DNA of 64,000 bases from Vicugna vicugna (Eukaryota), in assembly GCA_013265495.1 (NCBI GenBank), contig MU057597.1, positions 272,563-336,562 of the forward strand. The letters run 5' to 3'. The position numbers and the translations under genes were made by a program. The notes under the pieces are model-generated. The model ran no database searches. It saw only the letters and a list, made by a program, of their open reading frames with translations, and had not been told where the DNA came from. This document shows positions 8,241 to 53,709 of this stretch, one piece after another (the stretch's first letter is position 1; every line of letters starts with the position of its first letter).

Positions 8241-10738
8241 TCAAGTATGAATTTTCTCATGAAGCCTAAGGAGTGAACACCTGCTAAAAGCCTTGCCACA
8301 TTCATTACATTTGTAATGTCTCTCGCCAGTATGGATCACTTGATGGTAAGACAGGCTTGAACGCAAGATAAAGGCCTTACCACACACATCACATTTGTAG
8401 GGTTTCTCTCCAGTGTGAGTTCTCTGATGATATGCAAGGTGAGACCTGTGACTGAAGGATTTTGCACAGACATCACATTTAAATGGTTTGTCTCCTGTAT
8501 GGATGACTTGATGGGAAGTTAAGGTTGATCGCATGCTAAAGGCTTTGCCACACTCATTACATTTATAAGGTTTCTCTCCAGTATGAATTCTCCGGTGATT
8601 TACAAGGTGTGAATTCTGATTGAAGCCCTTGCCGCAGACATCACATTTATGTGGTTTCTCTCCTGTATGGATGACCTGATGGGAAGTTAAGCTTGACTGC
8701 ACAGTAAAGGCTTTGCCACACTCGTTACATTTGTAAGGTTTCTCTCCTGTATGAATTCTCTTATGATTCACTAGTTGGTAATTCTGACTGAAGCCTTTGC
8801 CGCAGACATCACATTTATGTGGTTTCTCTCCCGTATGGATTACCTGGTGGGAATTTAAGGTTGATCGCATACTGAAGGCTTTTCCACATACATTACATTC
8901 GTAAGGTTTCTCTCCAGTATGAATTCTACGATGATTCACAAGGTGTGAATTCTGACTGAAGCCCTTGCCGCAGACATCACATTTATATGGTTTCTCTCCT
9001 GTATGGATGATCTGATGGGAAGTGAGGCTTGAACGCACACGAAAGGCTTTCCCACAGTCGTAACACTTGTATGGTTTCTCCCTGGAATGGATTCTCTGAT
9101 GGATTTTAAAGTGTGACTTTTGACTGAAGACCTTCCCACATACATCACATTTATATGGTTTTTCTTCTTTATGGATTACCTGATGTGTAGCAAGAGTTGA
9201 ACCCTGAGTGAAGGCTTTGCCGCATTCTTTACATTTGAAAGGCTTCTCTCCAACGTGAATTCGTTGGTGGACCCTGATGTCAGACAGTTGCCTAAAGTCC
9301 TTACCACATTCAGTGCATTTGTACGGCTTTTCTCCTGTATGAATTCTCTTATGATTTGTAAGGTGTGAACGGTTTATAAAAAACTTCCCACATTCATTAC
9401 ATTGGTAAGGTTTCTCTCCAGTATGGATGACCTGATGGTAAGTTAGACTTGCATGCATACTGAAGGCTTTGCCACAAACATCACATTTGTACGGTTTCTC
9501 TCCAGCATGAATTCTTTGGTGAATCCTAAGATAATACCATTGCTTAAATGCCTTGCCACATTCAAAACATTTGTATGGCTTTTCTCCAGTATGAATTCTC
9601 TCATGATTTGTAAGGTGCGAACAGTTTATAAAAACTTTCCCACACTTATTACATTGGTAAGGCTTCTCCCCATTATGGATGACCTGATGGTAAGTGAGGC
9701 TTGAACGCACAATAAAGGCTTTACCACACTCATCACATTTGTAGGGTTTCTCTCCAGTATGAATTCTCTGATGAATTCTGAGTTCTGAATTTTGACTGAA
9801 GACTTTGCCACATACACCACATTCATACAGTTTCTCTCCTGTATGGATTATCTGATGTCTAACGAGGGGCATGTCATGATTAAAGGTTTTGCCACACTCA
9901 CTGCGTTCATAAGGCTTCTCTCCAGTGTGAACTCTCTGATGAACAGTAACGTTTGAATTCCAACTAGTAAGTTTGCCACATACATCACGTTTATATAAAT
10001 TTGCTCCTGTATGGATTCTCTGGTGTCTACGGAGGGATGAGCCATGATTAAAGGCCTTGCCACACTCATTACATTTGTACAGTTTCTCTCCAGTATGATT
10101 TCGCTGATGACTTGCAAGATCTGAATTTCGACTAAAGACTTTGCCACATTCATCACAGTTACATGACTGCTCTCCTGTGTGGATGATCTGATGCCCGGTG
10201 AGGGATGAGCCCTGATGAAATGTTTTGCCAAACTCATTACATTTGTAAGGTTTTCCCCCATGTGCTTTCTGGTCCTGTGTCAGTCCTGAAGGATGGATGA
10301 GGGCATTCTCATGTGTATTTGATATGTTAGTTTGGTCACTAGGAGGAATTCTTTCAAGCAGTGACGAGTCAATACTGTTGACAGACTTTGCGACTTGATT
10401 ACATTGAAGAACTTCCCCTTCAGTTTGATGTATCAGAAGTTTATCTCCAAACCTGGATCCAAGCCTGCTTTCAACGGGCTTCTTTCCTATATCCCTTCTC
10501 CCACACTGACTTCTTTTATCAGTGAGATTTTCTATACAGGTTACAGGCATTTGTTTGTCATTTCCTTCACCATCTCTCCACTGACACTCAAATTCCTGTG
10601 TATTTTCCTGGATTTCCTGGAAGTAAAAATCTTTCATTTCATGGCTTTCATGTCTCCCCAACCTCATTGTTTGGAATACTTCTCCGTCACTGTTCATTTT
10701 AGGTTGTAATTTCTTCATCACATGTATATGAAAGATAT
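8241..10738 (-). CDS. Gene A final exon: spacer plus 24 C2H2 finger units (21 canonical; units 1, 4, 5 lack a Cys)
   Basis: 826-aa ORF of CX2CX12HX3H-TGEKPY repeats; acceptor ttctttatatcttgtag before 10738 joins in phase 1 to the KRAB-A exon; spliced CDS 72+127+2498 = 2697 nt (898 aa). Confidence 0.95.
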
Positions 10739-18410: not shown

Positions 18411-20257
18411 TAAAAGGGTCTGCTGACCAATTTCACAATGGGTGTTGGGGGGTGGGGGACATTCCAAAATTCAATCCTCCCACACATTGCAAATAAGAAA
18501 ACAACACAAAGAGCATGATCAGACAGGAACCTGATGATTAAATAAACACCAACTTCATTTAAAATGCACAGAAACGTACAAGATGAAAGTAGCAATGGCT
18601 TAATCAAAACAAAACACAGTCCTTCACTGAAGGCACCATTCAACTTCATAAGCTCCCTCATTAGGATGCTTCGAAATAGTATTTGTTGAGGTTGCATAAA
18701 CAATGACACATACAGGGGGTGAAAAATGTGGCATAAGCAATAAATAGTTCAGTCAGCAGCCTCAGAGACATGAGGACGTGAACTTGGACAATGCTGTCCC
18801 AAGGAGAAATTCCTACACCATTTATTGAGGCTCAGAGGGGACGATTATCAGTACATGAGAACATTGTCACAGTTGCTCTTGAGACGTGCTTTTGTAATAC
18901 TCCTCAAAAGTGGGGGGAAAAAATTGGAAACACATCTTGCTCAGTCAAGGTCTTGTGATACTTTCCATCTCAGGGTCCTGGAACACACTGACCAATATGC
19001 TCAGTAGCTTCAAGTGGTACAGAATTATACTGTAACATATTAGTGGAAAAATTTCCATCAAGAATGCTCTGTTACCAAGTAAAACCCTTCCATCAAAGAT
19101 GGCTTATCATAGCAACAACAACAGCAAAAAACAAAAACAAAAACAAACAAAAAACCAAGCAACCAAACAAACAAACAAAACCAACAACCAACAACAACGA
19201 AAATCTCAGGATGAAATTTGGGACTCTAATAATGTGCATTATAAAAGCAATTTGGGGGGTGGGTGGGTGAGAAGGGTATAGCTCAGTGACAGAGCACATG
19301 CTTAGCATGCATGAGGTCCTGGGTTCAGTCCCCAGTACTTCTATTAACATAAATAAATAGATAAATAAATGAAAAGCAATCTCAGAGGCAAAGTCATGCA
19401 AACTAAAGAAAACATGACATCGAGAAGAGTCTACATTCCCAGGCCAGGTAAAGAGGTCAAAGAGTGAGAAAAAGACAAGATATGAGGGCCAGATATTATA
19501 GACCCTTAATGTGGGACCCTGCGCTCTACCCAGATGCCAAGCTCAGAGCCTGGAAGATTCATATATGCTCCCCCGTAGGACTGGGGGTCAAAGAGACTCT
19601 CTCCATCCACTGTCTTTACAGTTTTCCTAAGTAACAAGCACAGAAGATCCCACCCTTTTCCCCTCTGCACACCCCCCTGAAGGAGGAGGCACAAGCAGAA
19701 CAGAAGAGAGGGCTGAGGGACCTGAGCAGGCAGGCAGGGCTTGAGGCAGGTCTGTGCAGGGTCTGGGGCGACAGATGGAAACAAAGGGCAGTCAGTGTTT
19801 CCCATCATTTCATTAGTTCTTCCAAGTACAGCAAATGAGGATGAAACTGAGATCGGGCCAGGGCTCAGGACTATGAGCCTTCAGCTCTTATCTACATAGA
19901 CAAAAAATGGAAAATCCCATGGATCAAGTACAGAAGAAGTGATCAAGGGGGAAAGATATTCCTTTGAAACAGTTCACCACATGCTGCTCAAATAAGGCAA
20001 GGAGCTGACAGGAGCCAGACGGCAAAGAGATCCTGGCAAAGACTCTGCCTCTGTCTCCGGTGGAGCTGCAGCACCAGAGAAGTGAAAGGATGAATTTTAC
20101 ATGTTGAAGGACAGTGTGGTACGTACGGGAGAGGAAAAACATCCTCCACGAGGTCACAAGTAATAAACTTGTCTTCCCAAAGAACTCTCCGACGAACGGA
20201 GAGATTTCTAAACACTGTCAACACTGTGGCCTCCTCTCTGCCCTTCTGAGATCTGAC

Positions 20258-20384
20258 CCAGGTTCGTACTTTTCATACATTCCCACCTGTTCGGCTTTTT
20301 TTATCCTCACGTCACTCTTCACAGTCCAAGGTGCTTGCTCTTGCTCCAAAATGCAAATAATATTCAGGTCAGAAACCAAAATTC
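20258..20384 (-). pseudogene. Gene A KRAB-B exon, frameshifted (127 bp)
   Basis: gcag|GA ATT TTG GTT TCT GAC CTG AAT... = GILVSDLNIICILEQEQAPWTVKSDVRI; frame slips at an A7 run before the expected PNRWECMKS; donor G|GTCAGA; length not a multiple of 3. Confidence 0.8.
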
Positions 20385-20821
20385 CTGCCTCTAAGAAGAA
20401 AAAATGATGTGCTATGGGTTTTTCAGAATCCCAGCTCTCTGATCAGCAGAGGAAAGAGTACATGAAAAACGGATCTGGAAAACATTTCACAAATTCATTC
20501 ATTCACTGCTTGCCTCCTCAGAAGGCATGGGGAATAGTATAATGTGCAGACATCTAGTTCTCTTCCAAATAGGGAATCAAAAGCACAGGGTAGAAAATGG
20601 GGAATTGGATATGTTAAGTTTCCAACTGGGCTTCATCAGTATTTCAGCTGTGGAACAACTCTCGGTGCAACATAAAGTGGGCAGATCAGCCGAAGAAAGA
20701 GCAAGTTAAAACTCCTGGCACGACACCATGAAGCTTTTCATGTCTGAGGCAACAGGGATTTCAGATCAGTCAAGCAAAACACAGGCTCCCAAGAGGCACA
20801 CAGGGAAAATGCAGACACCTA

Positions 20822-20983
<162 letters not shown>

Positions 20984-24093: not shown

Positions 24094-24165
24094 CTGAGAA
24101 GGGGCCATTCTCGAGTCCTTTTCTGTCCTCTCCATCCTCTCCTGGGCTTCTTCCTCGGGGAACAT
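24094..24165 (-). CDS. Gene A start-codon exon (MFPEEEAQERMERTEKDSRMAPSQ); whole exon 24094-24184; second ATG at 24108
   Basis: Acceptor cctttcag before 24184, in-frame ATGs at 24165 and 24108, donor CAG|GTAAAG in phase 0 matching the KRAB-A exon. Confidence 0.85.
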
Positions 24166-25753: not shown

Positions 25754-26371
25754 GCTTTCGGCTTTTGGCTCTGAGGAGGTCAGGGTGCAACTTTCTTTGG
25801 TCGTCCCAAATCTGGGTTCATCCGACACCAGCCACCTCCACCAATGAGACCAGAGATCAAAGTCGTATACCTGAGGTGCACTGGTGGAGAAGTCGGTGCC
25901 ACATCTGCCTTGGCCCCCAAGATTGGTCCCCTGGGTCTGTCTCCAAAAAAGGCTGGTGATGACATTGCCAAGGCGACTGGTGATTGGAAGGGTCTGAGGA
26001 TTACAGTGAAACTGACCATTCAGAACAGACAGGCCCAGACTGAGGTGGTACCTTCTTCCCTCATCATCAAAGCCCTCAAGGAACCACCAAGAGACAGAAA
26101 GAAGCAGAAAAACATCAAGCACAGCGGAAACATCACTTTTGATGAGACTGCCAACATTGGCCGACAGGCGCAGCACTGATCTCTAGCTAGAGAGCTCTCT
26201 GGAACCATTAAGGAGATCCCGGGGACTGCCCGGTCTATGGGCTGCAATGTTGGTGGCCGCCACACTCACGACATCATAAAGGACAGCAACGGTGGTGCGG
26301 TGGGATGCCCAGGGAGTTAAGAACTACAAAGGAAAATGATCTAATAAAGGGTTATTTAACAACCAAAAAAA
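25754..26371 (+). pseudogene. RPL12: Processed pseudogene of 60S ribosomal protein L12, antisense within intron 1 of gene A
   Basis: Translation [33 protein letters not shown]...[23 protein letters not shown]; intronless; premature TGA 26177-26179; small deletions; aataaa 26343-26348, poly(A), target-site duplication aaatccttcc at 25744-25753 and 26372-26381. Confidence 0.95.
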
Positions 26372-29104
26372 AAATCCTTCCATGGAAGCTTAGGACCCAT
26401 CATTTCTCTTCTGGACTCACATTAACTTAGTAAGTCCCCAGACACTCAACAGTGAACCACCTACTCTGCTATGTAATTTTATGAAATATATACCAGGCCC
26501 CAATAATGCATGTATTTATGATGGAATAACACACAGGAGGATACCCAGGGACCCACTAGACCAGAAGACATAGTATGCTCATTCACAGTGACCCCAATCC
26601 AAATACTGTCATCTCCAGAAATTAACATGAGATGTCTCCAGTGATACACATGCCCCAGTGAGACCCCAACATCTTTCAAGGAAACACTCCAAATTCTCTT
26701 TTGTGTCTTTTATAGTGGATCTGAAACTTTCTACACTTGCACAGTGATTCCTGCCCTCCTAAAAGACCCCACAAAAGTCACTGTGTGGAGTGGAGGCTGG
26801 GGGGCATCTGCTAGATCCAGGCCCTCAGGACCAAGGCCCCCATCCTCCTGCACCCACAGCCCCCAGGTTTGCTCAGGCCTTGGATCAAGTTTCTCTCTGT
26901 CTGACTCCACTTCCTTCGCTCCCCTTCAGGTGAGATCATGAGCTACCCAATTAAAGACAGGCATGCAAAGCTCAGGCTCAGCCTCTGTGTCCCAAGAAGC
27001 TGAGGTAAGGCATCACAGCACTGCAAACCCTGCAAGGCAGCTTGAAACTAGCCCAAACCCACTTCCAGGGGCTCCAAGCAGATGTCTCACATCCACATTT
27101 GGAACAGCTGGACACACTATTCATTAGGCTCCTCTAGGCCCACATTGCTTCCACAATCTTCCTGCAGACCTCACAGGCTCCCCTCCATGTTCCCCACTTC
27201 TCTTTCTCTCCTCCATGCATGAGTGACTGAGCAACAGGGCTACAAAGAACAGGGGCCTCCAGGTACAGGCATCCCAACAGGAAGGCACAAGCTGCACCCA
27301 AGGGACCCTGGGCATTCAGTATCAAGGTCAAGAAGCTGGCCCTCCTGGGAAAACGTATCAGTAACTGGGGACATCATGTAGCTGAGTTTTAAAGGCATCT
27401 AAGGATTGCTTGCACTGAGTTTCTGTTCTAGACTCCAATCTCCATGTTACAAGCAGGCTCGCTAAGGTCCAGAGAGAAGGTCTGGACATTTCAGAGAAGG
27501 TCTCAATTGAGCGAAAAGACCAGATATACCTGAATGCTGAGAAAGTAGCCTGAAGGGCCAGTGGGCAGAGTCTGCCTATAACACTCTCAACACTTGAAAC
27601 ACCAGGTCCTTCTCACATGTGCCTGAGCAAAGGGAACATCTCTTCCAAGGTCTCATCACACTGATACCAGGCACGTAGTTCTTCTTTTCCAGAAAAAATC
27701 ACAGTAAAACAATTTAATAAGAATTGCAAAACAACAGCACTTGACCTGGAAAACATTTTAAGGGGTCAGCTTAGAAGAAAGCTCTGAGCAAACTTCAGCA
27801 TGAACAGATGGGCTCTGCTGGAAGAAGGTTCCAAGCCCATCCAGCCCATCCTCCACCATCTGCAGAGACAGTCAAGAGGGACCTGAGGGAACAACTTCAT
27901 GTCACCTTCCAGCTCACTAATTTAACAGATCACCAAAAAGGGAAGAACACGGAATATCAGGCTAACTGGTAAAACTAGGTTTTGACTATTAATGTAAAAG
28001 ATCATTGACATCTTTACCAAGTACTCGTCAAAACAGTCTAAAATCAATAGTTACCAAAGAACTTTTCCAGTATGTAAGAGAAAGAGGAAGAAGCACACAG
28101 CACCGAGTAAACTTCAAAAAAATTTAAAAGGGAAATAATTTGTGGTTTTTAAAAAGTCCAAAAATTCTGGTGTTAAAGATGGAAAAATTGAGAATATATC
28201 GTATTTAGAAAAGAATGACATGAGCTGATTATAGAAGGCCACCAAAGCTTATTTCAGAATTTATTATTTATAGAAAAGTAGAAATTGAATATACTGATTT
28301 ATTACAAGATAATAAATAAATACAAAGAAATCAGGAAGAAAAAAGCAAATCCAACACAACCCCCCCCACTTTTAATGTTCCTCTAAAGAGGCACCGTGTG
28401 GTGACAGAGTCAGTCATTTCTTACCCCACGTGTCCTCTCCCCTGATCTCTACTCTGTATCACGAAATGGGAAGGGGGTGACTCACAACTCAGTAAATCAA
28501 GTTACTGCCCCCGGGCTGAACAGGGGCTGCAAATGTAAGTTATCTTCTGATACAAGTAATTACAAAATAAACAAGCCTTACAGACAGGAGTTTTGCAATT
28601 CTCATCCTCATCTGTAAAATCCAAACAAATTTTAAATGTATTAGATACTAAAGCCACAGATCAATATATCACGACTTAATCACCCGCATCCAAACAACTC
28701 ACCACCATCTGCATCGTGTCCCCCTCTACCCGCACTACTATGTGTTTCCATTTCATTCCTTTTATCTGTCTCCCTATTTCTGTCTCTCTCTTTTTGGTCC
28801 CCTCTACTCTCCTGCTGACTCTCCCCTCCTATTTTTTGGTGACAACTGTCCTGCCCCACTCGGCAACTTGTGCCTCCTCTTGTTGCTCCTTCTGTCCAGC
28901 CTTTCTGATTGCCCTAAATCTTTATGTTATTTCTGCCTCTTTCTTCCTACATCTCTGCTCCCTCTCTGTTCTCCCGGCTAACTCCTTCTATCCTGCTACC
29001 CACCTTTCCTCCTCACTCTCTGGAACCCTAGGTGGCTAGACTTTCTTTCTGCTCTCTCTTCCTCTGCTCTTCTAGTCACTACTTGCCCTTTCTTTCTCTC
29101 CCAT

Positions 29105-30065
29105 CACCATTTTCCAGCAGGGTGGAATTTGGGATGGAAGAACCACGAGTGTCACTTGGTTGGCCCAGGTCACCTCACCCTACACGGGGTAGGGGAAGGG
29201 CTTATTACGAAGGGGAGGCCCGCGGAGCGGAAGGACTGGCCTGAGGAGGACGCGAGGACAGAGGGGCTGGGAGGGAGGGGGGTTTCAGGAGAGGCCGGGC
29301 TCCCCAGAATCCCGGGACCCCCGAGAGGACGCAGCCTCACGGGAGCGGGGCGGCCGGCGCCGCCCTCCAGGGGCCGAGAGGGCGAGGCTGGGGGCGCGAG
29401 TCCACCTCGCGGAAGGGGACGTTACATGGGGGGAGGAAGGGTAAAGGGTTTTATGAGGGAAAATATGACAAAAGGCGGTGTCTCCGTGACCGAAGGCAGA
29501 AAAGCCAAGGGCAGAGACCAGCCTCAGAGCGGTTTCAGACGCGAAAGAAAAGATCCCCGACCTGGAGCGGCGCCGTCTATACTGGAGGAGGGACTTTACA
29601 GGGCGGGCAGAGGTTAGTAAAGGGTTTATGAAGGAAAATATCGCGAAAGGCGGTGTGTCCGTGTCCGAACGAAGAAAAACCAAGGGCAGGGACCAGCCTC
29701 AGAACGGTTTTAAGCCCAAAATGACATGAACCCTTTCGAATTTACTTAGGGTGGAAGAGCAGGTGCGGGGATTTTAAATTTCGCAGTGGCTCCCACACTC
29801 TGAGGACGTATGGGGGGACCCCTGAAGTGCAGATTTACTACCTTAGAAGAAATTCACGCACCTACGTTGGATTTCAGATCCCCGTGGTGACCTCCGCTCC
29901 GCAATCCACTTCCCGGTCTGGGGGAAACTGCGCAAGCGCAAAGCGCGTTGGCCGTGACGCTTGTGGGAGGGGACTGAGCGCGGCGCTAGCGGAGGGGCGG
30001 GGCGAGGAGAGAAGACGGGTGNNNNNNNNNNNNNNNNNNNNNNNGGGCGGGGCTGGGGCGGGGCT
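29105..30065 (-). promoter_or_regulatory. CpG-island promoter, non-coding exon 1 (donor after 29858) and intron-1 start of gene A
   Basis: CpG-rich; NRF1-like tgcgcaagcgca 29929-29940, GC boxes; minus-strand GC|GTGAAT donor aligns with the gene B donor GC|GTAAGT, both followed by aaatctgcacttc. Confidence 0.75.
30022..30044. other. Assembly gap (23 N)
   Basis: Run of n. Confidence 1.
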
Positions 30066-31834: not shown

Positions 31835-32360
31835 TGTGAAGGAAAAGCCCAGCTGGGCTAACAAGCTAAGTCACAAATCTAAGTGTAACAAGTGTCAGAT
31901 TACTGATCTGAGTTCTGCTGGACTAACTCATAAATCTGAAGTTTAGTGTCAGTCTATTGGGCTAACGAGCTCAGTCACAAATCTAAGTGTGATAAGTGTC
32001 GGTTTACTGATATAAGTTCTGCCGGGCTAACTTGTAAATCTAAAGTTTAGTGTCAGTTTACTGGGCTAACAAGCTAACTCATAAATCCAAGCTCAACAAG
32101 TGTCAGTAACGTGATCTGTTCCAAATTGATAAGCTCCAGTGTACTGATTCCTTGCTTTTTGTTGTTTGAATCTTATTGGCTAATAGCCCCATACGTGTAA
32201 TTAACCCTATAAAACCTCATGTGCACAAAAACCTCATCGTCTTGGAGGTGCTCAGAGCTTCGGAGCAGAAGCCCCTCTGAGCCCGCCGGCGTAATAAATC
32301 TGAGTACTCCAACCCTCCAAGTGGTGCTTGTTTCTTGGCTGGCCTGTCATTTCCGTAACA
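31835..32360 (+). mobile_element. Young solo LTR (526 bp) with a 104-bp tandem repeat in U3
   Basis: TG...CA termini, 4-bp duplication ggtt at 31831-31834 and 32361-32364, TATA ctataaaa ~32207, aataaa ~32293; repeat units start at 31853, 31957, 32061. Confidence 0.9.
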
Positions 32361-37900: not shown

Positions 37901-38111
37901 TCTAAATTTACACAGTGATATATGTCATTGTATAAAGAATTGTTTATAGAACTCTTGCATGTCACTGTGTAAACAGTTGGGGTTTTTTTTTACTTTTTTG
38001 GTTTTTCTGTTGGGGAGGTAATTCGGTTTATTTATTTATTTATTTAAATGGATTGAACCCAGGAATTCATGCATGCCAAACAGTCACTCTACTACAAAGC
38101 TATTCCATTCC

Positions 38112-38731
38112 NNNNNNNNNNNNNNNNNNNNNNNNNNNNNNNNNNNNNNNNNNNNNNNNNNNNNNNNNNNNNNNNNNNNNNNNNNNNNNNNNNNNNNNNN
38201 NNNNNNNNNNNNNNNNNNNNNNNNNNNNNNNNNNNNNNNNNNNNNNNNNNNNNNNNNNNNNNNNNNNNNNNNNNNNNNNNNNNNNNNNNNNNNNNNNNNN
38301 NNNNNNNNNNNNNNNNNNNNNNNNNNNNNNNNNNNNNNNNNNNNNNNNNNNNNNNNNNNNNNNNNNNNNNNNNNNNNNNNNNNNNNNNNNNNNNNNNNNN
38401 NNNNNNNNNNNNNNNNNNNNNNNNNNNNNNNNNNNNNNNNNNNNNNNNNNNNNNNNNNNNNNNNNNNNNNNNNNNNNNNNNNNNNNNNNNNNNNNNNNNN
38501 NNNNNNNNNNNNNNNNNNNNNNNNNNNNNNNNNNNNNNNNNNNNNNNNNNNNNNNNNNNNNNNNNNNNNNNNNNNNNNNNNNNNNNNNNNNNNNNNNNNN
38601 NNNNNNNNNNNNNNNNNNNNNNNNNNNNNNNNNNNNNNNNNNNNNNNNNNNNNNNNNNNNNNNNNNNNNNNNNNNNNNNNNNNNNNNNNNNNNNNNNNNN
38701 NNNNNNNNNNNNNNNNNNNNNNNNNNNNNNN
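38112..38731. other. Assembly gap (620 N) just upstream of the gene B promoter
   Basis: Run of n. Confidence 1.
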
Positions 38732-39500
38732 CCCCGGCGCTCCCGGCTCCGACCTTGGCTCCCTCCTCGCCCCGCCCCCCGCCCCCAGCGCTCCGCCCAG
38801 GCTCCGCCCCCGGCCGTCCCGCCTCCTCACCCCGCGCACGCGCGGTTTCCTAGGAACCCGGAAACGGAAAGCTTGGAACCAGGCTCGTGCTGCAGAGCGT
38901 AAGTTTCTCTTTTCTACCTTAAATCTGCACTTCGCAGACACTTTACTCCATCATCAGAGTCTTGGAGTTACTGCAGACTTTAAATTCCCACTCCCGCCCC
39001 TCCGCCTAAAGTTAATCCAGAAGACACTGTTCAGATCGGGGATCGTTCCTTCTGGAGCATTAAATTTCCCGGACATCGGTCCCGGAGCCCTTGGCTTTTC
39101 TCCCTTTGGTCTGCGAAGACACCGCCTTTCGCAACTTTTTCTTTCTCGAAACCCCTTGCCACCTCCGCCCCGCCATGTAACGTCCCCTTCGGCGAGGTGG
39201 ACTCGCGCCCCCAGCCTCGCCCTCTCGGCCCCTGGAGGGCGGCGCCGGTCGCCCCGCTCCCGTGAGGCCGCGTCCGCTCCCGGGTCCCGGGATTCTGGGG
39301 AGCCCGGCCCTCTCCTGAGACCCCATCCCTCCCAGCCCTTCTGTCCTCGCGTCCTCCTCAGGCCGGTCCTTCTGCTCCGCGGGCCTCCCCTTCGTAGTCA
39401 GCCCTTCCCCCACCCCGCGAAGGGGGAGGTGACCGGGGTCAGCCTCGTGACCCCGCAGTATTGTTATGTTCCAAATTCCATCCCGTTGGAAAACGGCCTA
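38732..39500 (+). promoter_or_regulatory. CpG-island promoter, non-coding exon 1 (donor after 38898) and intron-1 start of gene B
   Basis: GC boxes, NRF1-like cgcgcacgcgcg, tandem ETS ccggaaacggaaa, donor GC|GTAAGT at 38899; inverted paralog of 29105-29950. Confidence 0.8.
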
Positions 39501-40344
39501 TTCCTTTTGGAGGGCACCTTATTTTGTCTCCATCCCTGTAAATACGTGGGCGAGGTGGGTCGGGAGAAGCAGAGACAGAAAGCGACTGAGAGAAAAATAG
39601 AAACACTGAGAAGGAGGAAGGATGAGGGAGAACCAAAGGGAATGTAGAGGATGGCTGAGGATCTTGCAGAGACAGTGAAATGAGAGAGTGTAAGCCTTAA
39701 AGGTAGCAGGTAGGTAAAATAGAGAAGTGAATAAAAAAAAAAAAAAGCCGATCCCCAGGGATTGGAGAGAAACGGGGAACGGGGCCCTGGATCAGCGGTG
39801 GGAGGCGGTGTAAAAGTTGTGAAGTACTTCACACAGAGAGTGGGGGCGAGGAGGATTAAAGAGGTGGAACCGTGGCCTTGAGAGTATCATGGTGCTGGGA
39901 GAGAAGGAGAGGAAAGGAAGCATAGGCACCTGGGGTGCCAGAGGGTGGGGGGGAAGGGAGGGAAAGGGGGAGACAAAGGGTGTAACTCGGAGGGCAGGGG
40001 GCAGCAGTGATGGGGGAAGAAATGCATGGAGATTTAGGACAATCAGAAAAGTTGGGGAGAAAGAGCAACAAGAGGGGCACAGATTGCAGAGTGGGGCAGG
40101 ACAGGAGTGAGGGAAGACATAGAGGGGAGGGCAGATACAGAAGGAGAGTGGAGGGGAACAAAAAGAAAGAGAAGTAGGGAAAGAGATAAACAGAATGAAA
40201 TTGAAACACAACAGTGCAGGTAGAGGGGGAAACTGGATGCAGATGGGTGGTGAATTGTTTGGATGTAGATGATTATGTTGTGGTATATAATTTGTGCCTT
40301 TAGAATTTAATACACTTAAAGTTTATTAGCTTCATTAGGCTTTA

Positions 40345-41014: not shown

Positions 41015-41029
41015 ATGGCTCTGTCTCAG
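41015..41029 (+). CDS. Gene B start-codon exon, coding part MALSQ (exon probably 40956-41029)
   Basis: ATG GCT CTG TCT CAG|GTAAAG, phase 0; homologous to the start exons of genes A and C. Confidence 0.85.
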
Positions 41030-43544
41030 GTAAAGTCATACTCTCAGTTGATTCTCACTGTGTCCTTCCTGACATGTCCTTCTTTGGACTCACTAATCTT
41101 TGCTAACTTTGAAGTATCCTTCCTGACACCTGTACATTCACAGTCACCCAGGACACTCCCTCAGTGCCTGTCCTCCCCACTTAGATTCCATCCCCGGGAC
41201 CCCAGGACTTGGAACTTGTGAAGAGTCTCCCTGGGCATTGTCCTGGGCAGGCTTCACACCCATGGATTGGAGATGCGGAGTCAGTGCTGTTGGACATCAG
41301 GGATTTAGTTTAGGGGCCCATCTGGGTGCGCTGTCTGCTGAAAAGATCCTGCCCTTGGAAGTCAGGTAATAGTATGCTCAAATCCTGGTAAATTTCAGAA
41401 ACAGACCAATAACGGGAAACATATTCTGACTTTTTATCCTGCATTTGAAGTTAAATGTGTCACTGATTTCCAAATCTTAATGATTAGAAATGAAATGGAA
41501 AGTTCAGAAAGAGAAATCACTGATAGAGCGTTTTATTCCATCATTGCTTTCAAACTGTGAAATCAGCCTAAATCTCTGACACATGGAAATTCCTATACCA
41601 TTTTCCTCACCTCCACTGCTTGGAGGTTACTTTTTCACTGTGTTGATTGCTCCCTTTGACACTGACAGTTTCTCAATTTGATGTAGGTAAGATTCCAGCT
41701 TTGTTCTTTTGCTGGTTGATACCCAGTTTCCCAGCACCATTTGTCACTGAGATTCTTTTTTCTATTGTATGATCTCGGCACCATTGTCAATACATTTTAC
41801 ATATATGCAAAATTATTTCCAAGCATTCTAATCTGCTCCATTGCTTTATTTATTATTATTATTTTTTAATGGAGGTACTGGGGATTGAACCCAGGACCTC
41901 ATGCATGCTAAGCATGTGCTCTATGACTGAGCTATACCCACTCTCTAAAACAAGTTGTACACTTTTTTTCTAGGGAGCTATTTCTTTTTTCAGGGTGGGG
42001 GAGGTAGTTAGGCTTATTTATTTATTTATTTATTTCATGGAGATACTGGGGATTGAAACCAGGACCTCATGCATGTTAAGCATGTCCTCTACCACTGAGC
42101 TGTACTCACCCCTCTGAGTGTTTCCTTCTGATCATAATGTTTGGTGAAATATTCTTGCTTAAATAACAATGTATTTTTTTCATATTCTTTTTTATCAGTA
42201 TTTTTAATTTTCCAATAAGTTTTTAACTTTTAATAGTATAGATTTTTTTCTTAATCTGTTAAACTCATGTGTAATATAATAACTTCTAATTTTGAAACCA
42301 TGTTATATGAGTGGAATACACAAATAAACTGTTTTGCATTGTCAATACCTACCTATGTAAATTTTAGTGTTTAAATTGTATTTATATTTTTGAATCTAGG
42401 TATTCTATAGATATAGCAGTTAAAGTATTCTATTTGTCTTTTTATGTTTGTACCATTTTTCTTTTACAAGACTGCTATAGACTAGTGTTGACTAAATTAA
42501 GTGAAGTTAATAACTTTTCATTGTCTGAAAAGGCTGAAATACATGTGGATAAAAATGATAGTGAAAAATGTTATCCAAAAATATGTCCATAGACAACTCC
42601 CATCTTTTAAGTTAGTTGTGTATTGACACGGGTTTGCATGAGGGCATCGAAGTGTAAGCCCTTGGTTTTGTTAAAGACATAATAATTTCAAAACTATCTT
42701 TTTGCAGTTGAAATATATCTTAAATATATTTCCTGACCCTGAATTTTTTCCGCACTATCGTGTGAATGATTTAAATATAATTACTAACATTTAAAAAATT
42801 TTAGAATTTATTTGTATTATTTTTAAAATTAATCTTTTTGTGAAGGGAGCTAATTAGGTTTGTACATCTAATTATTTAATGGAGGTCCCAGGACCTCAGG
42901 CATGGTAGGCATGCACTCTACCATTGAGCTATACCCTTCCCTCTTGTCAGTATACTTTAAATACTCTATTACCAAACTGATTCTTCACTTATGATTCCAG
43001 AGCCCAACCCCGTGAGTTCTGGTGCTTGCTGTGTCTTTTAGTTTCTTGACCTAAGTGTCTCCGAGTGTGTCTGACATGGCTGTCTTCTCTGTAAGATGGG
43101 AATAGATCATTCTCTAATGAGCTATTATGTGGAAAACAAGTTCATACATGTAAAGAATTTATTTAGAATGACATTTAGCACTTGGAAGTGTTCCAACACT
43201 TTTAGTCTTTGCTCTTGTTACCATTAGCATAATTTAAGGTCCTAACCTTTCCGTGAAGCCACTGTAGACTTTGTCATGTCTGAAGACGCCACTCAGCCTA
43301 TAGTCGCTCTGGATATTGCATATTACTCAGTGTGTGGAATGTAGTATCTACCACTTCTGCATAGACAACCCGTGGTTGAATTTTATTTGTATGTTTTTCT
43401 TGTGTTGTCCACAAATATGAGAAGTCCACATTGATTGGAGGGTATTTTAATCTCTATGAAAAGGCATAAAAAGCCAAAATTATAGACACATAATTTGCTC
43501 CAAATACCTTTACATGAATCTGTCTGAACACATACCTCAGTTAA

Positions 43545-43883
<339 letters not shown>

Positions 43884-44224
43884 TGAAAAGCTTCATCCTG
43901 TGGTATCACTAGTTTAAACTTACGTTTTCTTCAAATGTTCTCCCCTTTTCATGACATTCAGGGGTTCCAGAGCTCAAGTATTTGTAAGGCTCAATGGCGT
44001 ACTTTCAAATTACCTAGTTCCCTATTTCCTGCCCCTGTGCTTTTGACTCACTACTTCTTGGAAGAGAGCTAGATGTTCTTCCCTCTGTGTTCAGAAGGAG
44101 GCAGGCAGTGGATGAGTTTGTGAAACATTTTCCAGGCCCACCTGTAATGTCCTCACTCCTCAGATGAACAAAGAGCTGGGATTCTGGAAAAGCCACAGCA
44201 CTTAACATTTCTTCTGATAAGCAG

Positions 44225-44494
44225 GATTTTTTTGTTGTAAAGACAGGGAGGTAATTAGCTTTAATTAATTAATTTTTGTTTTTTCATGGAGGTCCTGTGG
44301 ACTGAAGCCTGGACCTCACTCGTGCTGAGCACGTGCTCTACCACGGAGCTATGCCCTCCATCCTTAGAATTTCTTTTTTTGATCTGAATATTACTTGCAT
44401 TTTGGAGCAAGAGGAAGAGCCCTAGATTGTGAAGAGCGATATGATCATAGTAGGAAACTGGGTGGGTGGGAATGTATGGAAAGTGTGAACACAG
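44225..44494 (+). pseudogene. Gene B KRAB-B pseudo-exon
   Basis: Acceptor aagcag at 44219-44224, antisense SINE ~44230-44365, then ISFFDLNITCILEQEEEP* (TAG 44423-44425 where Trp is expected), a further 1-bp slip, donor ACAG|GTCAGG. Confidence 0.85.
44230..44365 (-). mobile_element. vic-1-like SINE inserted at the start of the KRAB-B exon of gene B
   Basis: Reverse SINE (gtgctctaccacggagctatgccctcc; ggaggtaattag) between the acceptor and the exon body. Confidence 0.85.
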
Positions 44495-44929
44495 GTCAGG
44501 TCTCAGAAGGGCAGAGAGGAAGTGGCAGAGTTAGTAGTCTTTGGGAAAGTCTGCCCAAGTGAGAGGGTTCTTTGAGAAAACAGAAGTTTGTTTAGTGTGA
44601 ACTCTCAGGGGAAATTTTTCTTCTCATTAACTCATCACTCTGTCCTTCATATGTAAAATGTATTCTTTCACCCTCCAGTGGTGCTGCGGCTCCACCAGAG
44701 ACAAATAAACAGTCTTTGTCATGATCTACAACACTCTGCCCTCTGCCTCCTGTGAGCTTGTTGCTCGACTTTGAGGAGCATGATGTGGGCTGTATTATCC
44801 GGGTCTCTTGCCCCCTCCTCTCTCTTTCTGGACTTGACTCCTTTGGGTGCTCAGTTCTCAGTCCCTGTAGATAAAAGTTGATGCCTCCAGACTCCAATCC
44901 CTGAGCCTTTCTTGGTTCTGTCCCCATTG

Positions 44930-47900
44930 ATGTTGTGCATTTAATCTGTTCTTACTTTGTGGTCTGTACTTCTGGTGTTAACGTCTGATAAACCATTGGT
45001 GAATGCAATGTCAGGAAACTTTGCCTGTATGTTTACTTCTAGGAGTTTGATGCTTTTAGGTCTTAGGATTACATCCTTAATCCATTTTGAGTTACTTTCA
45101 TATGTAGTGTAAGATAATGTTCCAGCTAAATTCTTTTGTATGCCGTTATCCAGTTTTCTCAACAACTTCTGCTTAGTAGACTGCCCTTCCCCCACTGAGT
45201 GGTCCTGACAACCTAGTGGAATAGCATTACGCCATGTACACAAGAGTTTGTTTCTGACATCTCTGCTGTATTCCACTGGCCTCTCTGTCTTTATGCCAGT
45301 ACCACACTGCTTTGATTAGTGTAGCTTTAGCATAAGCTTTGAAGTAAAGACATGTCAGACTTCCATCTTTTTTATTTTCTAGCTTGTTTTCTATTCAGGG
45401 TCTCTTGAGATCCCATTACAAATCATAGGATGGATTTTTTTTTGTATATATACATTTATTTATTGAAGCATAGTCAGTTTACAATGTTGTGTCAATTTCT
45501 AGTGTACAGCACAATGCTTCAGTCATACATGAATATTTGTTTTCCTATTCTTTTTGACCAGAAGTTAATACAAGATATTGAATATAGATCCCTGTGCTGT
45601 ACAGTATAAACTTGTTTATTGGATTTTGTGATAATCCTGCTGTATTTTGAATCAAAGACACTCTGCCAGAGTTCAGTAGGTGTTCTATGTGATTCAGTGG
45701 GTTTGTAGATGTAATTCTTGGCATATTTATGGGATAGGGCAAGCTATGAGTCTCTCTACCCCACCAGCTTGGCACCTCCTTTTCTTTTTTTTAGCAGAGG
45801 TACTGGGGATTGAACCTAGGACCTGGTGTATGCCAAGTGTGCACTCTACCACTGAGCTATTCCCATCTCCCCCAAGGATGGATTTATCTGTTTCTTAAAG
45901 ACACACTATTGGAATTTTATTAGGGATTGGATTGAAACTGTTGATCATTCTAGGTAGTATTGACAGCTTGATAGTATTATCTTCCCTTCCAAGAACTTGG
46001 GATATATTTGCATTCATTTGTGTTGTTCGTAATATTTTTCAACAGCTATTTTAGTTTACAGTGTGCATGTATTTTCCTCTGTGTATAAGGCGATGCCTAA
46101 GTATTTCTTTCGTTTTTAATGCTTCTATAAGTGGAATTGTTTTCTCAATTTCTTTTCTAATTGTTCATTGTTGATCTATAGAAATGCAGTGATTTTTGCA
46201 TGCTGATTTTATATCATTTCAAAATTCATTAATTATTTCTAACTGGTTTTATTGTGGAATCTTCAAGGTTTTCTACATATTAAATTATGTAGGTTGTAAA
46301 CAGATAATTTTGATTTGTTTTTCTGTTTGGATACCTTTTATTTCTTTGTTCGTTTTGTTTTTTTTGAAGGGGAGGCTATTAGGGTTATTTATTTATTAAT
46401 TTTTTTTCAGTGGAGGTACTGGGGATTGAAACCAGGCCCTCGTGCATGCTAATAAGCACATGCTCTACCACTGAGCTCTCCACCTCTCAGCCCCCTAAAA
46501 GGTGCTGCCTTGGGAGCCTTTTTTCTTTTTTTTTAAAAAATCTTAATGGAGATAATGGGGATAAAACCCAGGACCTTGTGCATGCTAAGCATGTGCTCTG
46601 CCACTGAGCTATTACTCTTGAATGGTTTTTGATTAGACATTCAATCTCCTTACAGGTTACAGGTTTTTAAAATTGTTTTTAATTAAAAAAAATTTTTTTA
46701 CTGAAGTGTAGTTGATTTACAATGTTATGTTAGTTTCAGGTGTATAGTGAAGTGATTCAATTATGTGTGTATGTGTGTGTATATATATATTTCTTTATCA
46801 GATTCTTTTCCATTATAGGTTAATTCAAGATATTGAATATGGTTCCCTGTGCTATACAGTTGCTTATCTATTTTATATATAGTAGTGTGTGTCTGCTAAT
46901 TCGAAACTCCTAATTTATTACCCACAACTTCCTCTTTGATAACTGTAAGATTGTTTTCTATGTCTGTGAGACTGTTTCTGCTTTGTAAATAAGTTCATTT
47001 TTATCATTCTTTTAGATTCCACATATCAATGATGTTATATATTTTTATTTCTCTGTCTGAATTACTTCACTTAGTATGATAATCTCGAAGTCTGTCCACA
47101 TTGCTGCAAATGGCATTATTTCATTCTCTTGTGGCTGAGTAATAGTCCATTGTATGGATGTATGTGTGTGCACACACACACCACATAGTCTATATCCATT
47201 TGTCTGTGGATGGACATTTGTGCTATTTCCTGGATCATATGGTAACTATACTTTAACTTTTTAGGGAACCTCCATAATGTTTTCCATAGTGGCTACACCA
47301 ATTTACATTCCCACCAGCAGTGTAGGAGGGTTCCCTTTCTTCCACACCCTCTCCAGAATTTATTATTTGTAGACTTTTTGATGATGGCTATTCTGACAGT
47401 TGTGAAGTGATACTTCACTGTAGTTTTGATTTGCATTTCTCTAATAATTAGTAATGTTGAACGTCTTTTCTTGTGCCTCTTGGCCATCTGTATAACTTCT
47501 TTGAAGAAATGTGTCTTTAGGTCTTCTGCCCATTTTTTTGATAGGGTTTGTTTTTTTGATACTGAACTGTATGAACTGTTTGTATATTTTGGAAATTGAG
47601 CCATTGTTAGTTGCATTGTTTGCAACTGGGTTGTCTTTCCATTTTGTTTATGGTTTCATTTGCTGTTCAAAAGTTTTTAAATTTGATTAGGTCTCATTTG
47701 GGTTTTTTTTCTTTTATTTCTTTTGCCTTGGGAGACTGACCTTAGAAAATATTGTTATAATTTATATAAGAGAATTTCTTGTTCTACTCTATGAGTTTTA
47801 TGTTGTCATATCTTATATTTAAGTCTTTAAGCCATGTTGAGTTTATTTTTATGTAAGGTGTGAGGGACTGTTCTAATTTCATTGGTTTACATGCAGCTGT

Positions 47901-48419
47901 CCAGCTTTCCTGCCACCACTTATTGAAGAGACTGTCTTTTCTCTACTGTATATTCTTGCCTCTTTTGTCGAAGAATAATTGACTGTAGCTGTGTGGGTTT
48001 ATTTCTGGGCACTCTGTTCTGTTGATCCATGTATCTGGTTTTGTGCCAATATCATGCTGTTTTGATTACTATAGGTTTGTTGTATTATCTGAAGTCTGGG
48101 AGGAATATGCCCCCAGGTTTGTCCTTTTTCCTCAATATTGCCTTGGTATTTCTGGATCTTTTGAGGTTTTAGATGAATTTTAGGATTATTTGTTCTAGTT
48201 TGTGAAAAATATCATGGGTAATTTAATAGGGATCATTTTAAATTTGTAGCTTGCTTTGGGTAGTATGGCCATTTTAGTCATATTAATTCTTCCAATACAT
48301 GAGCATAGGATAACTTTCCATTTCTTTGAATTATCTTCAATTTTCTTTATCAGTGTTTTATAGTTTTCAGAGTGTAAGTCTTTCACTTCCTTGCTCAGGT
48401 TTCTTCCTAGGTTTTGTGT

Positions 48420-48457
<38 letters not shown>

Positions 48458-50075
48458 CAGAATTTAAATAGAGATTGTTTTTTTAAATTTCCTCTTTCTG
48501 ATATTTTATTGTTAGTGTAAAGAAATGCAACCGATTGCTGTATATTAATCTTATGTCCTGCTATCTTGCTGAATTCATTTATCAGTTCTAAGAGTTTTTT
48601 AATGGAGTTTTTAGGGTTTTCTACGTAGACTGTCTTGCCATCTGCACATAATGACAATTTTACCATTTCCCTTCCAATTTGGATATGCTTTATTTCTTTT
48701 TCTTTGCTTATTGCTGTGGCTAGGATTCCAATACTATTGTGAATTGAAATGCTGAGAGTGGGCTTCTTGTCTTGTTCCAGGTTTCAGCTGGAAGCCTTTC
48801 AGCTTTTCATCGAGTGTTATTTTAGCTGTGGGCTTGCCCTAAATGGCTTTTAATATATTGAGATGTGTTACAGGTTTGCTCAGTTATTTTATTTTTTCAT
48901 GACTCAGTGTTGGTGGGTTGTGTTTCTGTAGGAATGTATCTATTTCTTATAGGTTTTTCTGTATTTAGGCACATAGTTTCTCAGTCTTCTTTTCTAATTT
49001 TTTGAATTTCAGTAGAAGTAGTTGTAATCTGTTGTAATGTCCCCTTTTTCATTCCTGATTCTAGTAATTTTGAGTCTTCTCTCTCTTTTTTGTTTTTGTT
49101 GTTGTTGTTGTTAGTTAATGTAGATAAGAGCTTGTCAAAGAAGTAACTTGGAATCTTGTGACTTTCTGTAGTTTTTATTGTCTATTTCATTTGTTGCTAA
49201 TGTAATTGTTTTTGCTATCTTCTGCTAGCTTAGGTTTATTTTGTTCTAAGATCTGCTTCCTTTTGTTCTTTTCCTTTTTGAAAATTGTTTTATAGACATG
49301 GTAAACCAGGACCTCTTTTTTTGTACTTATTTATATTTGCACTCTCCCTGATTTATTGACATTTAATTAATCTATATCATTGTGTAAGTTTAAAGTGTAC
49401 AAGGTGATGATCTGATATATATTTGTATTGCAAAATGAGTATTTCAGTAGTTTCTTATCAGTTTTATTAATCACATAATTACAGTTCTTGTGTGTATGGT
49501 GAGAACATGTAAGTTTTACTGTCTTAATAACTTTAAAGTATGTGACACAATATGGATAATTGTAATTACCATGCTGTACATTAGATTCCTAGAACTTCTT
49601 CAACTTCCAACTGGAAGTTTATTCCTTCGACTAATATCTCCCCATTCTCCCAACCCCTACGCCCTGGTAATCACTATTCCACTTTCTCTTTCTATTAGTT
49701 TTACTCTTTTTCTGTTCACTTTTGAAGTTATTTTTCGCATGTATATGAGGTCATGTAGTATTAGTATTTTTCTCTGAATTATTTTACTGAGCATGTAACC
49801 TCAGTGTCCATTCATGTTGGTACAAATAGTAAGACTTACTTCTTTTTATGGCTGAATGATATTATATTGTATATATCTTTAAAAGACTTCTTTTGTCCAT
49901 TCACGCCATAGACATTTAGGTTGTTTCCATGCCTTGGCTATTGTGAGTACTGCTGTCATGAACATGGGAGTCCAGGTATCTCTTTAAGACAGTGAATTCA
50001 GTGTTACATATCCGAAAGTGGAATTGCTTCATTGTGTGATAGTTTTTTTTTTTAAATTTTTTGGAAGCTTTATGC
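44930..50075 (-). mobile_element. Mosaic of nested LINE-1 fragments and SINEs in the last intron of gene B
   Basis: Minus-strand ORF pieces translate as L1 ORF2 ([48 protein letters not shown]). Confidence 0.9.
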
Positions 50076-52279
50076 TTTTCTATTTCTTTTTATATGCACG
50101 TGTGTGTACAGACTAAACCCCTCAATCTTTTTTTGATGGTTTCTTACTGATTTTTTTATTCTCGTTTCTGCTAATAACATTCTTACCCAGTCTCCTGGAA
50201 TGTCACGTATGTTCTTTTCAATATATGCATGGAAATGGGATGTATTGAAAATTCAGTTTGATGCCTTAAATAGAAAGTTGTGTAATAGATGCAAACCTGC
50301 TTTATTTCTACACTATCCCATTTTCTCCATTTTAAAATCTCTTCCATTTCCCTGTCATACACATGATGTAATTCCCATAGTTAAAATGGGCCAGTGTCAT
50401 GCTACTTGCTAAACCAGTTCTTTTCTCTCAAGATCAATATCTTAGCTGCGGGCGTGAATGATGCAGTTACAGTCACATAGATGCGCAGTCCCAGGCTGTG
50501 CTCCCACGTGTGCATGTGCCCTGTGCTCCTCTCAGACCCTCTCTCCTTCCTGACCTTTCCTCACATGGTACCTGGATATGGATGGTTATTTGTTAGCACT
50601 TTTAATTTGTTCTCCTGAACTTCCCAGATTCCACAGCCCTCCCTCAGCCATCCCTCCACCTTCCACATGACTCACACTGTAAAATGACCCCTCTTCTTCC
50701 ATTGAACACCTTTCTCAGGATGCTACCAAAATCACTATGTGTGGTTGTGATGACTCAGAGACTATTTCCAGGATGGACAGCTGAATAACATTACTAGTTT
50801 ACAAAGCTCACTTCTTGCTTCTGCCTTGAAGTTTTCTTCCTAAACACCTTGAGTTTGTTGTATTATTTTATAATCTGTCCTGCCTGGGTGGGCAGTTATG
50901 CTTTAGAGTATGTGTCACAGTTTGTAGATTTAAGTTCAAATCCTGGTTCTCTCACTAGTTTCTGTGTCACTTGGAGTCATGGGCATGAACCTGTGAGTCT
51001 ACTGGCCTGATTTGAAAAATCATAGTCATTTACCTCAAACCTTTTAAAACAAATTAGTGCTGTCACATGGGTTAGAATCTTGCCTGTTTTATAGTAAAGA
51101 TTGGAAAGTTACTTTCTATAAGTAGTTGTACTGATATCTGTCATGTTTATTCTGATATCACTTTGCATACATCATATCTTGTATGCTTTTCATTTGCAAT
51201 TTGTTCTAAACAACATTGTGTCTGACCCTAGGTAATCAATTTACACATTCCTCACTCTTTATTACATATATTGTGGAGTCAATGAACTAGAGAGTTTAAG
51301 TGCTCTGTGTAGGAAGGGAATTGCTCTATTTATTGGCTGTTAGATAACTGGAGAGTATTTCATTTATTAATATTTGATTGTGATTTATATATGATGGTTT
51401 TTCAGTGTTTATTATAGAATACAACTGACATGCACCATGTGTTAACACTGTAAAATGCATATTCTTCGTGGGTATGTAGGTTTGTGTTTGTTTTTTTTGC
51501 TTGTTTTTTAATTGAAGTAGTCAGTTTACAATGTTGTGTCAGTTTCTGGTGTAAATAGCAGATATTTAGAATAAACATTTTTTTGACTGCGTTACCAAGT
51601 TCTTCATTTTCTCTGTTCTATTTCTTTTGCAATTCTACATTGCCAGTTATTTAAATTATTCACTAGATAAGCTTCTTTCAGATTATGTTCCATATTAATA
51701 TGTTGTGTGTTTTTAGCATTTATTTATGTGCAGTAGAGTGCAGATGTATGTATAGGGTAATATTTTTAGTCTCCTTAATTATGAGACAACAGTATCTTTA
51801 CTGTTAATCGGTATGTGTTTTGGGGTCATGATGGAAAAATACTCTTTCTCTGAGAGCTTAAAAGCTTGTCTAAGAGGGAAGGGTGTAGCACAAGTGGTAG
51901 AGCACATGCTTAACATACACAAAGTCCTGGGTTCAATCCTCAGTACCCTCTCTAAAAATAAATAAATAAATAAGAAACCTAATTACCTCCCCACTAAGAA
52001 AATGGAAAAAAAAAAGTTTGTCTAATGTGAAAGTTATTGTCGCAGGGTGTTTGAACTAGGCTTCCCTAATGTTAATTTGAATGACACATAATTGCTCTTC
52101 CTTTAGTAAAGAATCCTATTCCTTTAGTGTTCCTAAAAAATTTAAGGTCCTGATTGGGAAATTTCATAACCTTGTTGGGAATAAATATTACTATTGGTTT
52201 AATAACATATATTCAACGTCAAACTTTTATTCATGAATTGTAATGATTAGGACACCTATGGTTTTTTTGTATCTTTTAG

Positions 52280-53709
52280 ATGTCTCTCATATACATGTGA
52301 TCAAGAAATTACAGCCAACGACAAATAGTGATAGCGGAGAAGTATTCCAAGCAGTGATGTTGGAAAGACAAGAAAGCCCTGAAGTGAAACATTTTTACGT
52401 CAGGGAAATCCAGGAAAATACATATGACTTTGGGTGTCAGTGGAGAGATGATGAAAGAAATTATAAAGGAATGCCTGTAACCCAGAAGGAAGATGCCCCT
52501 GACAGAAGTGACCAGCAAGGTAGGTGGAATGCAGGAAACAAGCCTATTGAAAATAGGCTTGCATTCAGCTTTCTGGACGAACTGCATATATTTGAGAAAG
52601 ATATTTACCAATGTAATGAGTGTGGCAAAACCTTTAATCAGGACTTGTCCCTGAGTAGACACCAGATAATCCATACAGGAGAGAAGTTATATAAATATGG
52701 TGTATGTGGAAATGCTTTTAGTCAAAAGTCAAACCTTGCAAGTCACTGGACGGTTCATACTCATGACAATACTTACAAATGTAACGAGTGTGGCAAAACC
52801 TTTCATCATGGCTCATCCCTCAGTAGACATCAGGTCATCCACACAGGAGAGAAATTGTATAAATGTGATGTATGTGGCAAAGTCTGTAGTCAGAATTCCT
52901 CCCTCAAACGTCATCAGAGAATTCATACAGGAGAAAGGCCTTATCAGTGTAATCAGTGTGGCAAAACCTTTAATCGTGGCTCTCACCTCTCTGAACATCG
53001 GATAATCCATACAGGAGTGAAATTATGTAAATGTGATGTATGTGGCAAAGTCTTTAGTCAAAATTCATGTCTTAGAATTCATCAGAGAATTCATAATGGG
53101 GAGAAACCTTACAAATGTAATGAGTGCGGCAAGGTCTTTCGTCAAAATTCACATCTTGCAAGACATCAGAGAACTCATACTGGGGAGAAACCGTACAAGT
53201 GTAATGAGTGTGGCAAGTTCTTTAGTCAGAATTCAAATCTTGTAAGTCATCAGAGAATTCATACTGGAGAGAAACCTTACAAATGTAATGAGTGTGGCAA
53301 GTTCTTCAATCAGAATTCAAATCTTGTAAGTCATCAGAGAATTCATACTGGAGAGAAACCTTATAAATGTAACGAGTGTGGCAAGTTCTTTAATCAGAGG
53401 GCAGATCTTACAAAGCATCAGAGAGTCCATACTGAAGAGAATTCTTTCAAATGTAACGAGTGTGGTAAGATCTTCTGTCGAACTTCAAATCTTGTAAGTC
53501 ATCAGAGAATTCATACTGGAGAGAAACCTTTCAAATGTAATGAGTGTGGCAGATTCTTTAGTCAAAGGGCAAACCTTGGAAGGCATCAGAGAGTTCATAC
53601 TAGAGAGAAACCTTACAAGCATAGTGAGTGTGGCAAGGACTTCAATCAAAATTCACTTTTTCCAGTTTCATCAGAGAGTATATATTGTAGAGAAGCCATT
53701 CAAGCATAA
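52280..53709 (+). CDS. Gene B final exon: spacer plus 11 canonical C2H2 fingers, one degenerate finger and a frameshifted 13th unit
   Basis: Acceptor tgtatcttttag before 52280, phase 1; spliced CDS 15+127+1430 = 1572 nt (523 aa). Confidence 0.93.

Follow-up and report, generated by a model that had tools for sequence, protein, structure and literature searches.

The locus raises the question of whether a single frameshifted exon can switch a zinc-finger gene between two proteins. In the window, the whole 64,000-nucleotide stretch of Vicugna vicugna DNA analyzed here, a gene on the minus strand (gene A) carries a KRAB-A exon, a B-type exon, and a last exon encoding 21 fingers, in that order. 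According to the original prediction, skipping the B-type exon yields a DNA-binding repressor and including it yields a KRAB-only protein that may act as an adaptor or decoy.

Gene A and the frame of its B-type exon

Gene A is a camelid member of the ZNF160/665/766-like cluster of KRAB zinc-finger genes, with its A box on an exon of its own and a tandem finger array in a single last exon. The first coding exon (24094..24165, minus strand) contains in-frame ATGs at 24165, 24135, and 24108, the third of which is the counterpart of the start of the whale proteins described below. The 127-nt KRAB-A exon (20857..20983, minus) matched Pfam PF01352 with an E value of 7.8e-26 and a score of 89.9 bits against a cutoff of 20.4. 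The last exon (8241..10738, minus) encodes a spacer and 21 C2H2 fingers in its main frame. When the B-type exon is skipped, the finger array is in frame with KRAB-A, and the open reading frame of 898 amino acids is whole, as had been claimed.

Several other features lie around gene A. A processed pseudogene of the ribosomal protein L11 family (PF03946; approximately 25775-26250, plus strand), which we take to be RPL12, is antisense in the upstream part of the gene and contains stops. CpG-rich islands at 29001-30000 and 38001-40000 are probably the promoters of gene A and its divergent paralogue, gene B. The assembly has gaps at 30022-30044 and 38112-38731, and a 104-base unit is present in 2.4 copies between the two genes (31853-32106).

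The KRAB-B-type exon occupies 20258..20384 on the minus strand. Its length of 127 nt, the preceding AG, and the following GT all agreed with the original prediction, and the frame entering from KRAB-A was free of stops throughout. A tblastn comparison with relatives revealed that the exon is a true KRAB-B homologue, although a Pfam profile search produced no match on it. The B-box part is in frame and the tail is shifted; the exon carries LE..PW, the B-box motif as described in the available part of PMC8835667. The whole in-frame B exon comprised 43 codons (129 nt) in three relatives, a frame-keeping length that the gene A exon, at 127 nt, misses.

The frame slips at the A7 run (20296..20302, minus strand), which is present as the T7 run on the plus strand that had been reported. 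The location of the slip was thus upheld, but its size was revised: the exon is best read as two bases short of 129 nt rather than as one base longer than 126 nt. Six codons separate the Ile/Val and Trp positions in all eight intact B segments recovered by pattern matching, whereas the gene A exon has 16 nt in this interval; past the A run, the sequence returns to the old frame. In intact relatives, the slip position is occupied by Ala or another non-Lys residue. The simplest reading would be that two bases were lost next to six consecutive A residues, a change unlike the usual one-base homopolymer slip.

A neutral simulation was used to judge the open frame and splice sites. Both the open frame and the AG/GT ends survived in 0.29-0.37 of copies at 10-12.5% divergence and in 0.60 at 5%. 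Because simulated neutral copies often keep both, the retained frame and AG/GT ends are alone no proof of selection, and, for the same reason, persistence of the exon in two lineages needs no selection.

Splice sites and the product of inclusion

The donor of the B exon (TGG/GTCAGA) departs from the consensus at -3, -2, +3, and +6. It was the weakest of the six donors scored by U1 pairing, a rough measure rather than a trained model, with a dG of -5.1 compared with -8.0 to -10.3 for the others. The best of the six scores belonged to a rival donor inside the exon (20279..20289, minus), which ends the exon at 20287 and gives a 98-nt exon and, counted from the conserved ATG, a product of 86 aa. 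The acceptor site combines a good pyrimidine tract (14-15 of 20 positions) with three tandem AGs, the additional two lying 4 and 6 nt upstream of the acceptor itself. None of the six acceptor and donor pairs restored the finger frame, so any inclusion would give a fingerless product. Four pairs led to proteins of 86-104 aa ending in the last exon, and the other two stopped within the B exon. The tail named in the original prediction is just one of several possible tails. Read-through past the B donor (20218..20257, minus) reaches a stop at 20220-20218, and this end point matches that of the whale isoform P0183.

The predicted inclusion product keeps the KRAB domain and is without fingers. With the donor and acceptor at the ends of the 127-nt exon, the frame enters the last exon in a shifted register (10699..10738, minus), which supplies a 12-residue tail and a stop. 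The 121-aa protein with its claimed 17-residue ending was recovered, with the stop at 10701-10699. The shorter form of 102 aa had been assigned to the second ATG; it starts at the third (24108), and the second (24135) gives 111 aa. The stop begins 37 nt past the last junction, with approximately 3 kb of 3' untranslated region behind it. Junction-dependent decay follows a stop more than approximately 50 nt upstream of the last junction. The inclusion transcript should escape this decay, and the arrangement of a poison exon, with its stop upstream of the last junction, arises only through the minor acceptor at 20388.

The tail is a shifted reading of the conserved main frame. The same shadow peptide occurs in gene B and in three bovid isoforms, which reach it by routes other than that of gene A. 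The tail carries no sign of design and is a shadow of the main frame.

Protein searches, with the B-exon frame and among the KRAB-A relatives, did not reveal a camelid gene A protein containing the B exon. The B-exon-frame search, which returned one candidate, yielded nothing; its blank is uninformative because it missed P0183, a relative found later with a stretch of nine residues in common with the query. The 120 nearest KRAB-A rows listed contained no exact match to a gene A protein, whatever its form. In metagenome contigs, an exact search with 22 bases found one locus, a chance match with no similarity past the pattern.

We then considered the KRAB-A residues. In an alignment to 7z36_D, gene A kept 13 of the 15 positions checked against ZNF93, the exceptions being Asn36 to Thr and Tyr37 to Cys. 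Asn36 is essential for silencing in ZNF10, the contacts in the ZNF93-KAP1 structure come from the A box only, with none from the B box, and some KRAB proteins are without a B box (PMC9753469). Certain A boxes reach full activity only together with B, according to the available part of PMC8835667. The 120 nearest KRAB-A rows listed, a set biased by the query, included 113 with Thr36. Because Thr36 is common in the group, TRIM28 binding by the gene A KRAB domain appears probable.

Counterparts in toothed whales and neighboring genes

Short isoforms of toothed whales resemble the predicted product. XP_060145098.1 of the pilot whale Globicephala melas (isoform X3; P0268) and XP_032468548.1 of the vaquita Phocoena sinus (X2; P0269) are each 102 aa long and have the same shifted frame and the same stop as the gene A product; the A box is followed by the shifted B and then by the last exon, read in that frame. 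The same shifted exon is present in XP_066874894.1 (Kogia breviceps X5) and XP_060145097.1, which end differently. The pygmy sperm whale model, which was among the 120 nearest KRAB-A relatives listed and whose cluster has four members from three toothed whales, carries the B exon with the same frame shift and continues past the donor to a stop position that gene A would also reach. The short isoforms are predicted RefSeq models annotated as 'zinc finger protein 766-like', and alternative RefSeq isoforms are usually backed by aligned transcripts. Judged by length, frame, and stop in sequence comparison, the whale models are the annotated counterpart of the predicted fingerless product. Four whale RefSeq models and P0172, a model matching a third gene described below, include a frameshifted B exon, which makes inclusion plausible; we infer that it occurs in the camelid. 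An assembly error is unlikely because the gene A exon is 2 nt short, unlike a one-base slip, and the pilot whale and vaquita models contain the same product. Most likely, the B exon is real and old.

The whale gene is likely orthologous to gene A, as sequence comparison suggests. The whale tail is identical to that of gene A at 10 of 12 positions, compared with 7 of 15 for gene B. The main frame implied by the whale tail starts like that of gene A, and the sole stored protein with such a start is a fin whale model that shares 65% identity with the spacer of gene A across 144 residues. The whale KRAB-A, however, is nearer to that of gene B (37-39 of 42) than to that of gene A (34-35 of 42), so orthology is likely rather than proven. 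The B peptides of gene A and the whales agree at 26-27 of 41 positions, comparable to the fast spacer (65%). Back-translation gave 109 of 123 matches for two separate 2-nt losses approximately 8 nt apart and 105 for one shared loss; this order flips at a gap cost of -6, and the comparison does not decide between the two. Two separate losses would amount to convergence.

The fin whale protein KAB0389437.1 (P0004), a close relative of the gene A spacer, exits the main frame past the spacer into finger-like sequence in another frame. The whale finger array may be broken, or this model may be wrong.

Gene B (41015-53709, plus) has its ATG at 41015, KRAB-A at approximately 43635-43761, and its last exon from 52280; it encodes 11 complete fingers, after which a non-finger tail ends the frame and degenerate fingers follow. 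Its spacer matched an alpaca model residue for residue, and a dromedary model differed at three places, so a South American camelid is the most likely source of the window. A dead B-exon remnant of 128 nt lies at 44367..44494 (plus), with a TAG at 44423 and an insertion of approximately 135 nt (44232-44366) directly behind its acceptor, and the alpaca and dromedary models of gene B skip it. Between genes A and B, identity was 76% in the B exon, 71-76% in introns, 85% in KRAB-A, and 77% in the coding spacer. The comparison of the B exon with introns has low power because the coding spacer is equally divergent.

Gene B also has an internal donor in its last exon at 52519 (plus), where alpaca XP_031537450.1 and dromedary XP_064345855.1 end. 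Both are 128-aa fingerless KRAB proteins, and this donor would constitute a second route to a KRAB-only form, common to both camelid genera. Gene A is without a GT at the matching position.

A third KRAB zinc-finger gene (1317-1921, minus; first coding exon approximately 1510-1448) runs off the left end of the window and is an 88% copy of the first-exon region of gene A. P0172 is identical to its first coding exon over 21 of 21 residues and contains a B exon that is shifted to the other frame; the upstream ATG of this gene in the window is one base out of frame with P0172. Among the sequences compared, slippage of the B exon at an A-rich spot most likely took place in gene A, gene B, P0172, and the whales, at least four genes or lineages in all.

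The spacer was used to place these genes among their relatives. An earlier spacer search had given two matches among 126 candidates; the gene A spacer search gave 119 relatives, 33 of which had a recognizable KRAB-A end (35 motif rows). The spacer tree of 33 rows dropped P0038, P0055, P0065, P0077, and P0102 (intron read-through or other joins) and one P0027 motif, and two P0001 rows were added; P0241 and the whale short forms were absent from it. Genes A and B share their side of the tree with 17 database rows, all of which join the A box straight to the spacer and are thus A-only. The six rows with an in-frame B sit across a branch with 93/88 support, below the starred level. P0241 has a spacer of the gene A clade type and an in-frame B exon of 42 codons, so B has not been lost in every member of the clade. 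No complete finger was present in 98 of the 120 nearest KRAB-A relatives listed, a count that includes many fragments or ab initio models from a search favoring short proteins.

Weighing the readings and known KRAB-only proteins

We consider it somewhat more probable than the opposite that the B exon is an old relic with a shifted frame, skipped for the most part and leakily included, and that it constitutes no regulated switch. The working mRNA of gene A would skip B and encode an A-box-only repressor with 21 fingers. The exon would have lost 2 nt long ago at an A-rich, slip-prone spot while its splice sites stayed usable, and a fraction of transcripts probably includes it, yielding a fingerless KRAB-A+B protein of 102-121 aa with its stop in the last exon. 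Freed of constraint, B may have slipped in several genes, with inclusion persisting where splice sites survive. Such leaky splicing of a dispensable exon would change the dose of the full-length protein little, if at all. The whole skip frame, the A-only side of the spacer tree, the dead exon of gene B, and the weakest donor are consistent with this reading, as are the intron-like identity of the exon between genes A and B, below that of KRAB-A, the spacer-level identity of the whale B peptide, the shadow origin of the tail, and the absence of B-box contacts with KAP1 in the ZNF93 structure (PMC9753469). Against it, the identical frame, length, and stop in the camelid and whales would be expected under selection too, P0241 keeps an in-frame B, the identity test is low in power, and the inclusion level in the camelid could be zero or high.

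The shared frame, 102-aa length, and stop of the pilot whale and vaquita models, together with the pygmy sperm whale model that includes the same exon, also agree with a selected switch, in which the frameshifted exon was kept or arose twice; inclusion would give a fingerless KRAB-A+B protein able to titrate TRIM28 or to link it with a second factor, and skipping would give the DNA-binding repressor. Back-translation slightly favors two separate losses, functional precedents exist in KRAB-O and VHLaK (PMC3143589, in the part available), and the need of some A boxes for B (PMC8835667, likewise in part) points in the same direction. We nevertheless regard a selected switch as unlikely: the weak donor is outscored by one inside the exon, B and the tail show no sign of sequence constraint, it would not be rare for both lineages to keep the frame and splice sites neutrally, whale orthology is likely rather than proven, with a whale KRAB-A nearer to gene B, and the Asn36 essential in ZNF10 is Thr in gene A (PMC9753469). 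The four off-consensus donor positions, the dead paralogous exon, and the protein searches that gave no camelid gene A protein with B would instead suit an exon that is never included in camelids and is spliced only in the whale counterpart. This reading is slightly less probable again, as those searches were insensitive, the acceptor has a good pyrimidine tract, and an internal donor is on hand. The whale models weaken the idea of a fully dead relic.

A bolder proposal joins these observations. Camelids and whales have the same B exon in the same shifted frame, possibly acquired twice, and have kept it; the B box then appears only on the fingerless product, so that a weaker A-only DNA-binding form (Thr36, Cys37) would be set against a B-boosted fingerless form. 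With one exon, DNA binding would be exchanged for affinity to TRIM28 as a built-in decoy, a pattern recurring in neighboring genes of the cluster; the shifted exon would have been retained for some 60 million years. We find this improbable. The lesion lies within a homopolymer and P0241 has an in-frame B exon, as might be expected if the A run contained an assembly or consensus error and gene A were an ordinary KRAB-A+B finger protein; however, the deficit is 2 nt at a non-Lys position of intact relatives, unlike a one-base slip, the whales share the frame, and two neighboring paralogues are also shifted at the same spot, which makes such an error very improbable.

KRAB-only isoforms have often been proposed as decoys, although few have been tested and most are indistinguishable from splicing noise. 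The occurrence of the same frameshifted exon and 102-aa product in camelids and whales provides a comparative test across artiodactyls; this match distinguishes the gene A exon from an ordinary decayed one and opens it to testing. If the exon is neutral, it is a clear example of a dispensable KRAB-B exon decaying while still spliced and a warning against taking annotated short isoforms as functional.

Similar to poison exons, the gene A B exon would divert transcripts from the full-length protein if included. However, in contrast to poison exons, which carry a decay-triggering stop, its stop follows the last junction, and it is not a classical poison exon.

The idea of a KRAB-only isoform belongs to a known class that includes KRAB-O, VHLaK, ZNF268, and many human fingerless isoforms. 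In the SRY adaptor KRAB-O and in VHLaK, an isoform of ZNF197, KRAB is kept and fingers are absent, as in the predicted gene A product, according to the available part of PMC3143589; both have shown partners and function, whereas the gene A product is predicted. The available part of bioRxiv 10.1101/2024.11.28.625692 describes 310 expressed fingerless human C2H2 isoforms with 76 tissue switches, and fingerless isoforms of human ZNF470, ZNF530, ZNF571, ZNF208, and ZNF302 are presented as predicted corepressor decoys; the available part of 10.64898/2026.08.06.743218 describes the fingerless isoform ZNF268-209. The human isoforms rest on RNA-seq, whereas the gene A product is predicted from sequence. 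The route through an out-of-frame B exon was absent from the available parts of these two preprints, whose supplements may list cases, and the literature searched, which covered few subscription papers, contained no paper that deals with this camelid gene or treats a KRAB-B exon with a frameshift as a switch.

The toothed-whale 766-like short isoforms resemble the gene A product most directly, with KRAB-A, then a B exon shifted as in gene A, and, in the first two, a shared stop; unlike the studied proteins, they are database models. Human ZNF468 reportedly co-expresses two variants, ZNF468.1 and ZNF468.2, one a short KRAB-A+B form without fingers and the other A-only with fingers. ZNF468 presumably belongs to the cluster type of gene A and would thus be a precedent for the same A+B short form.
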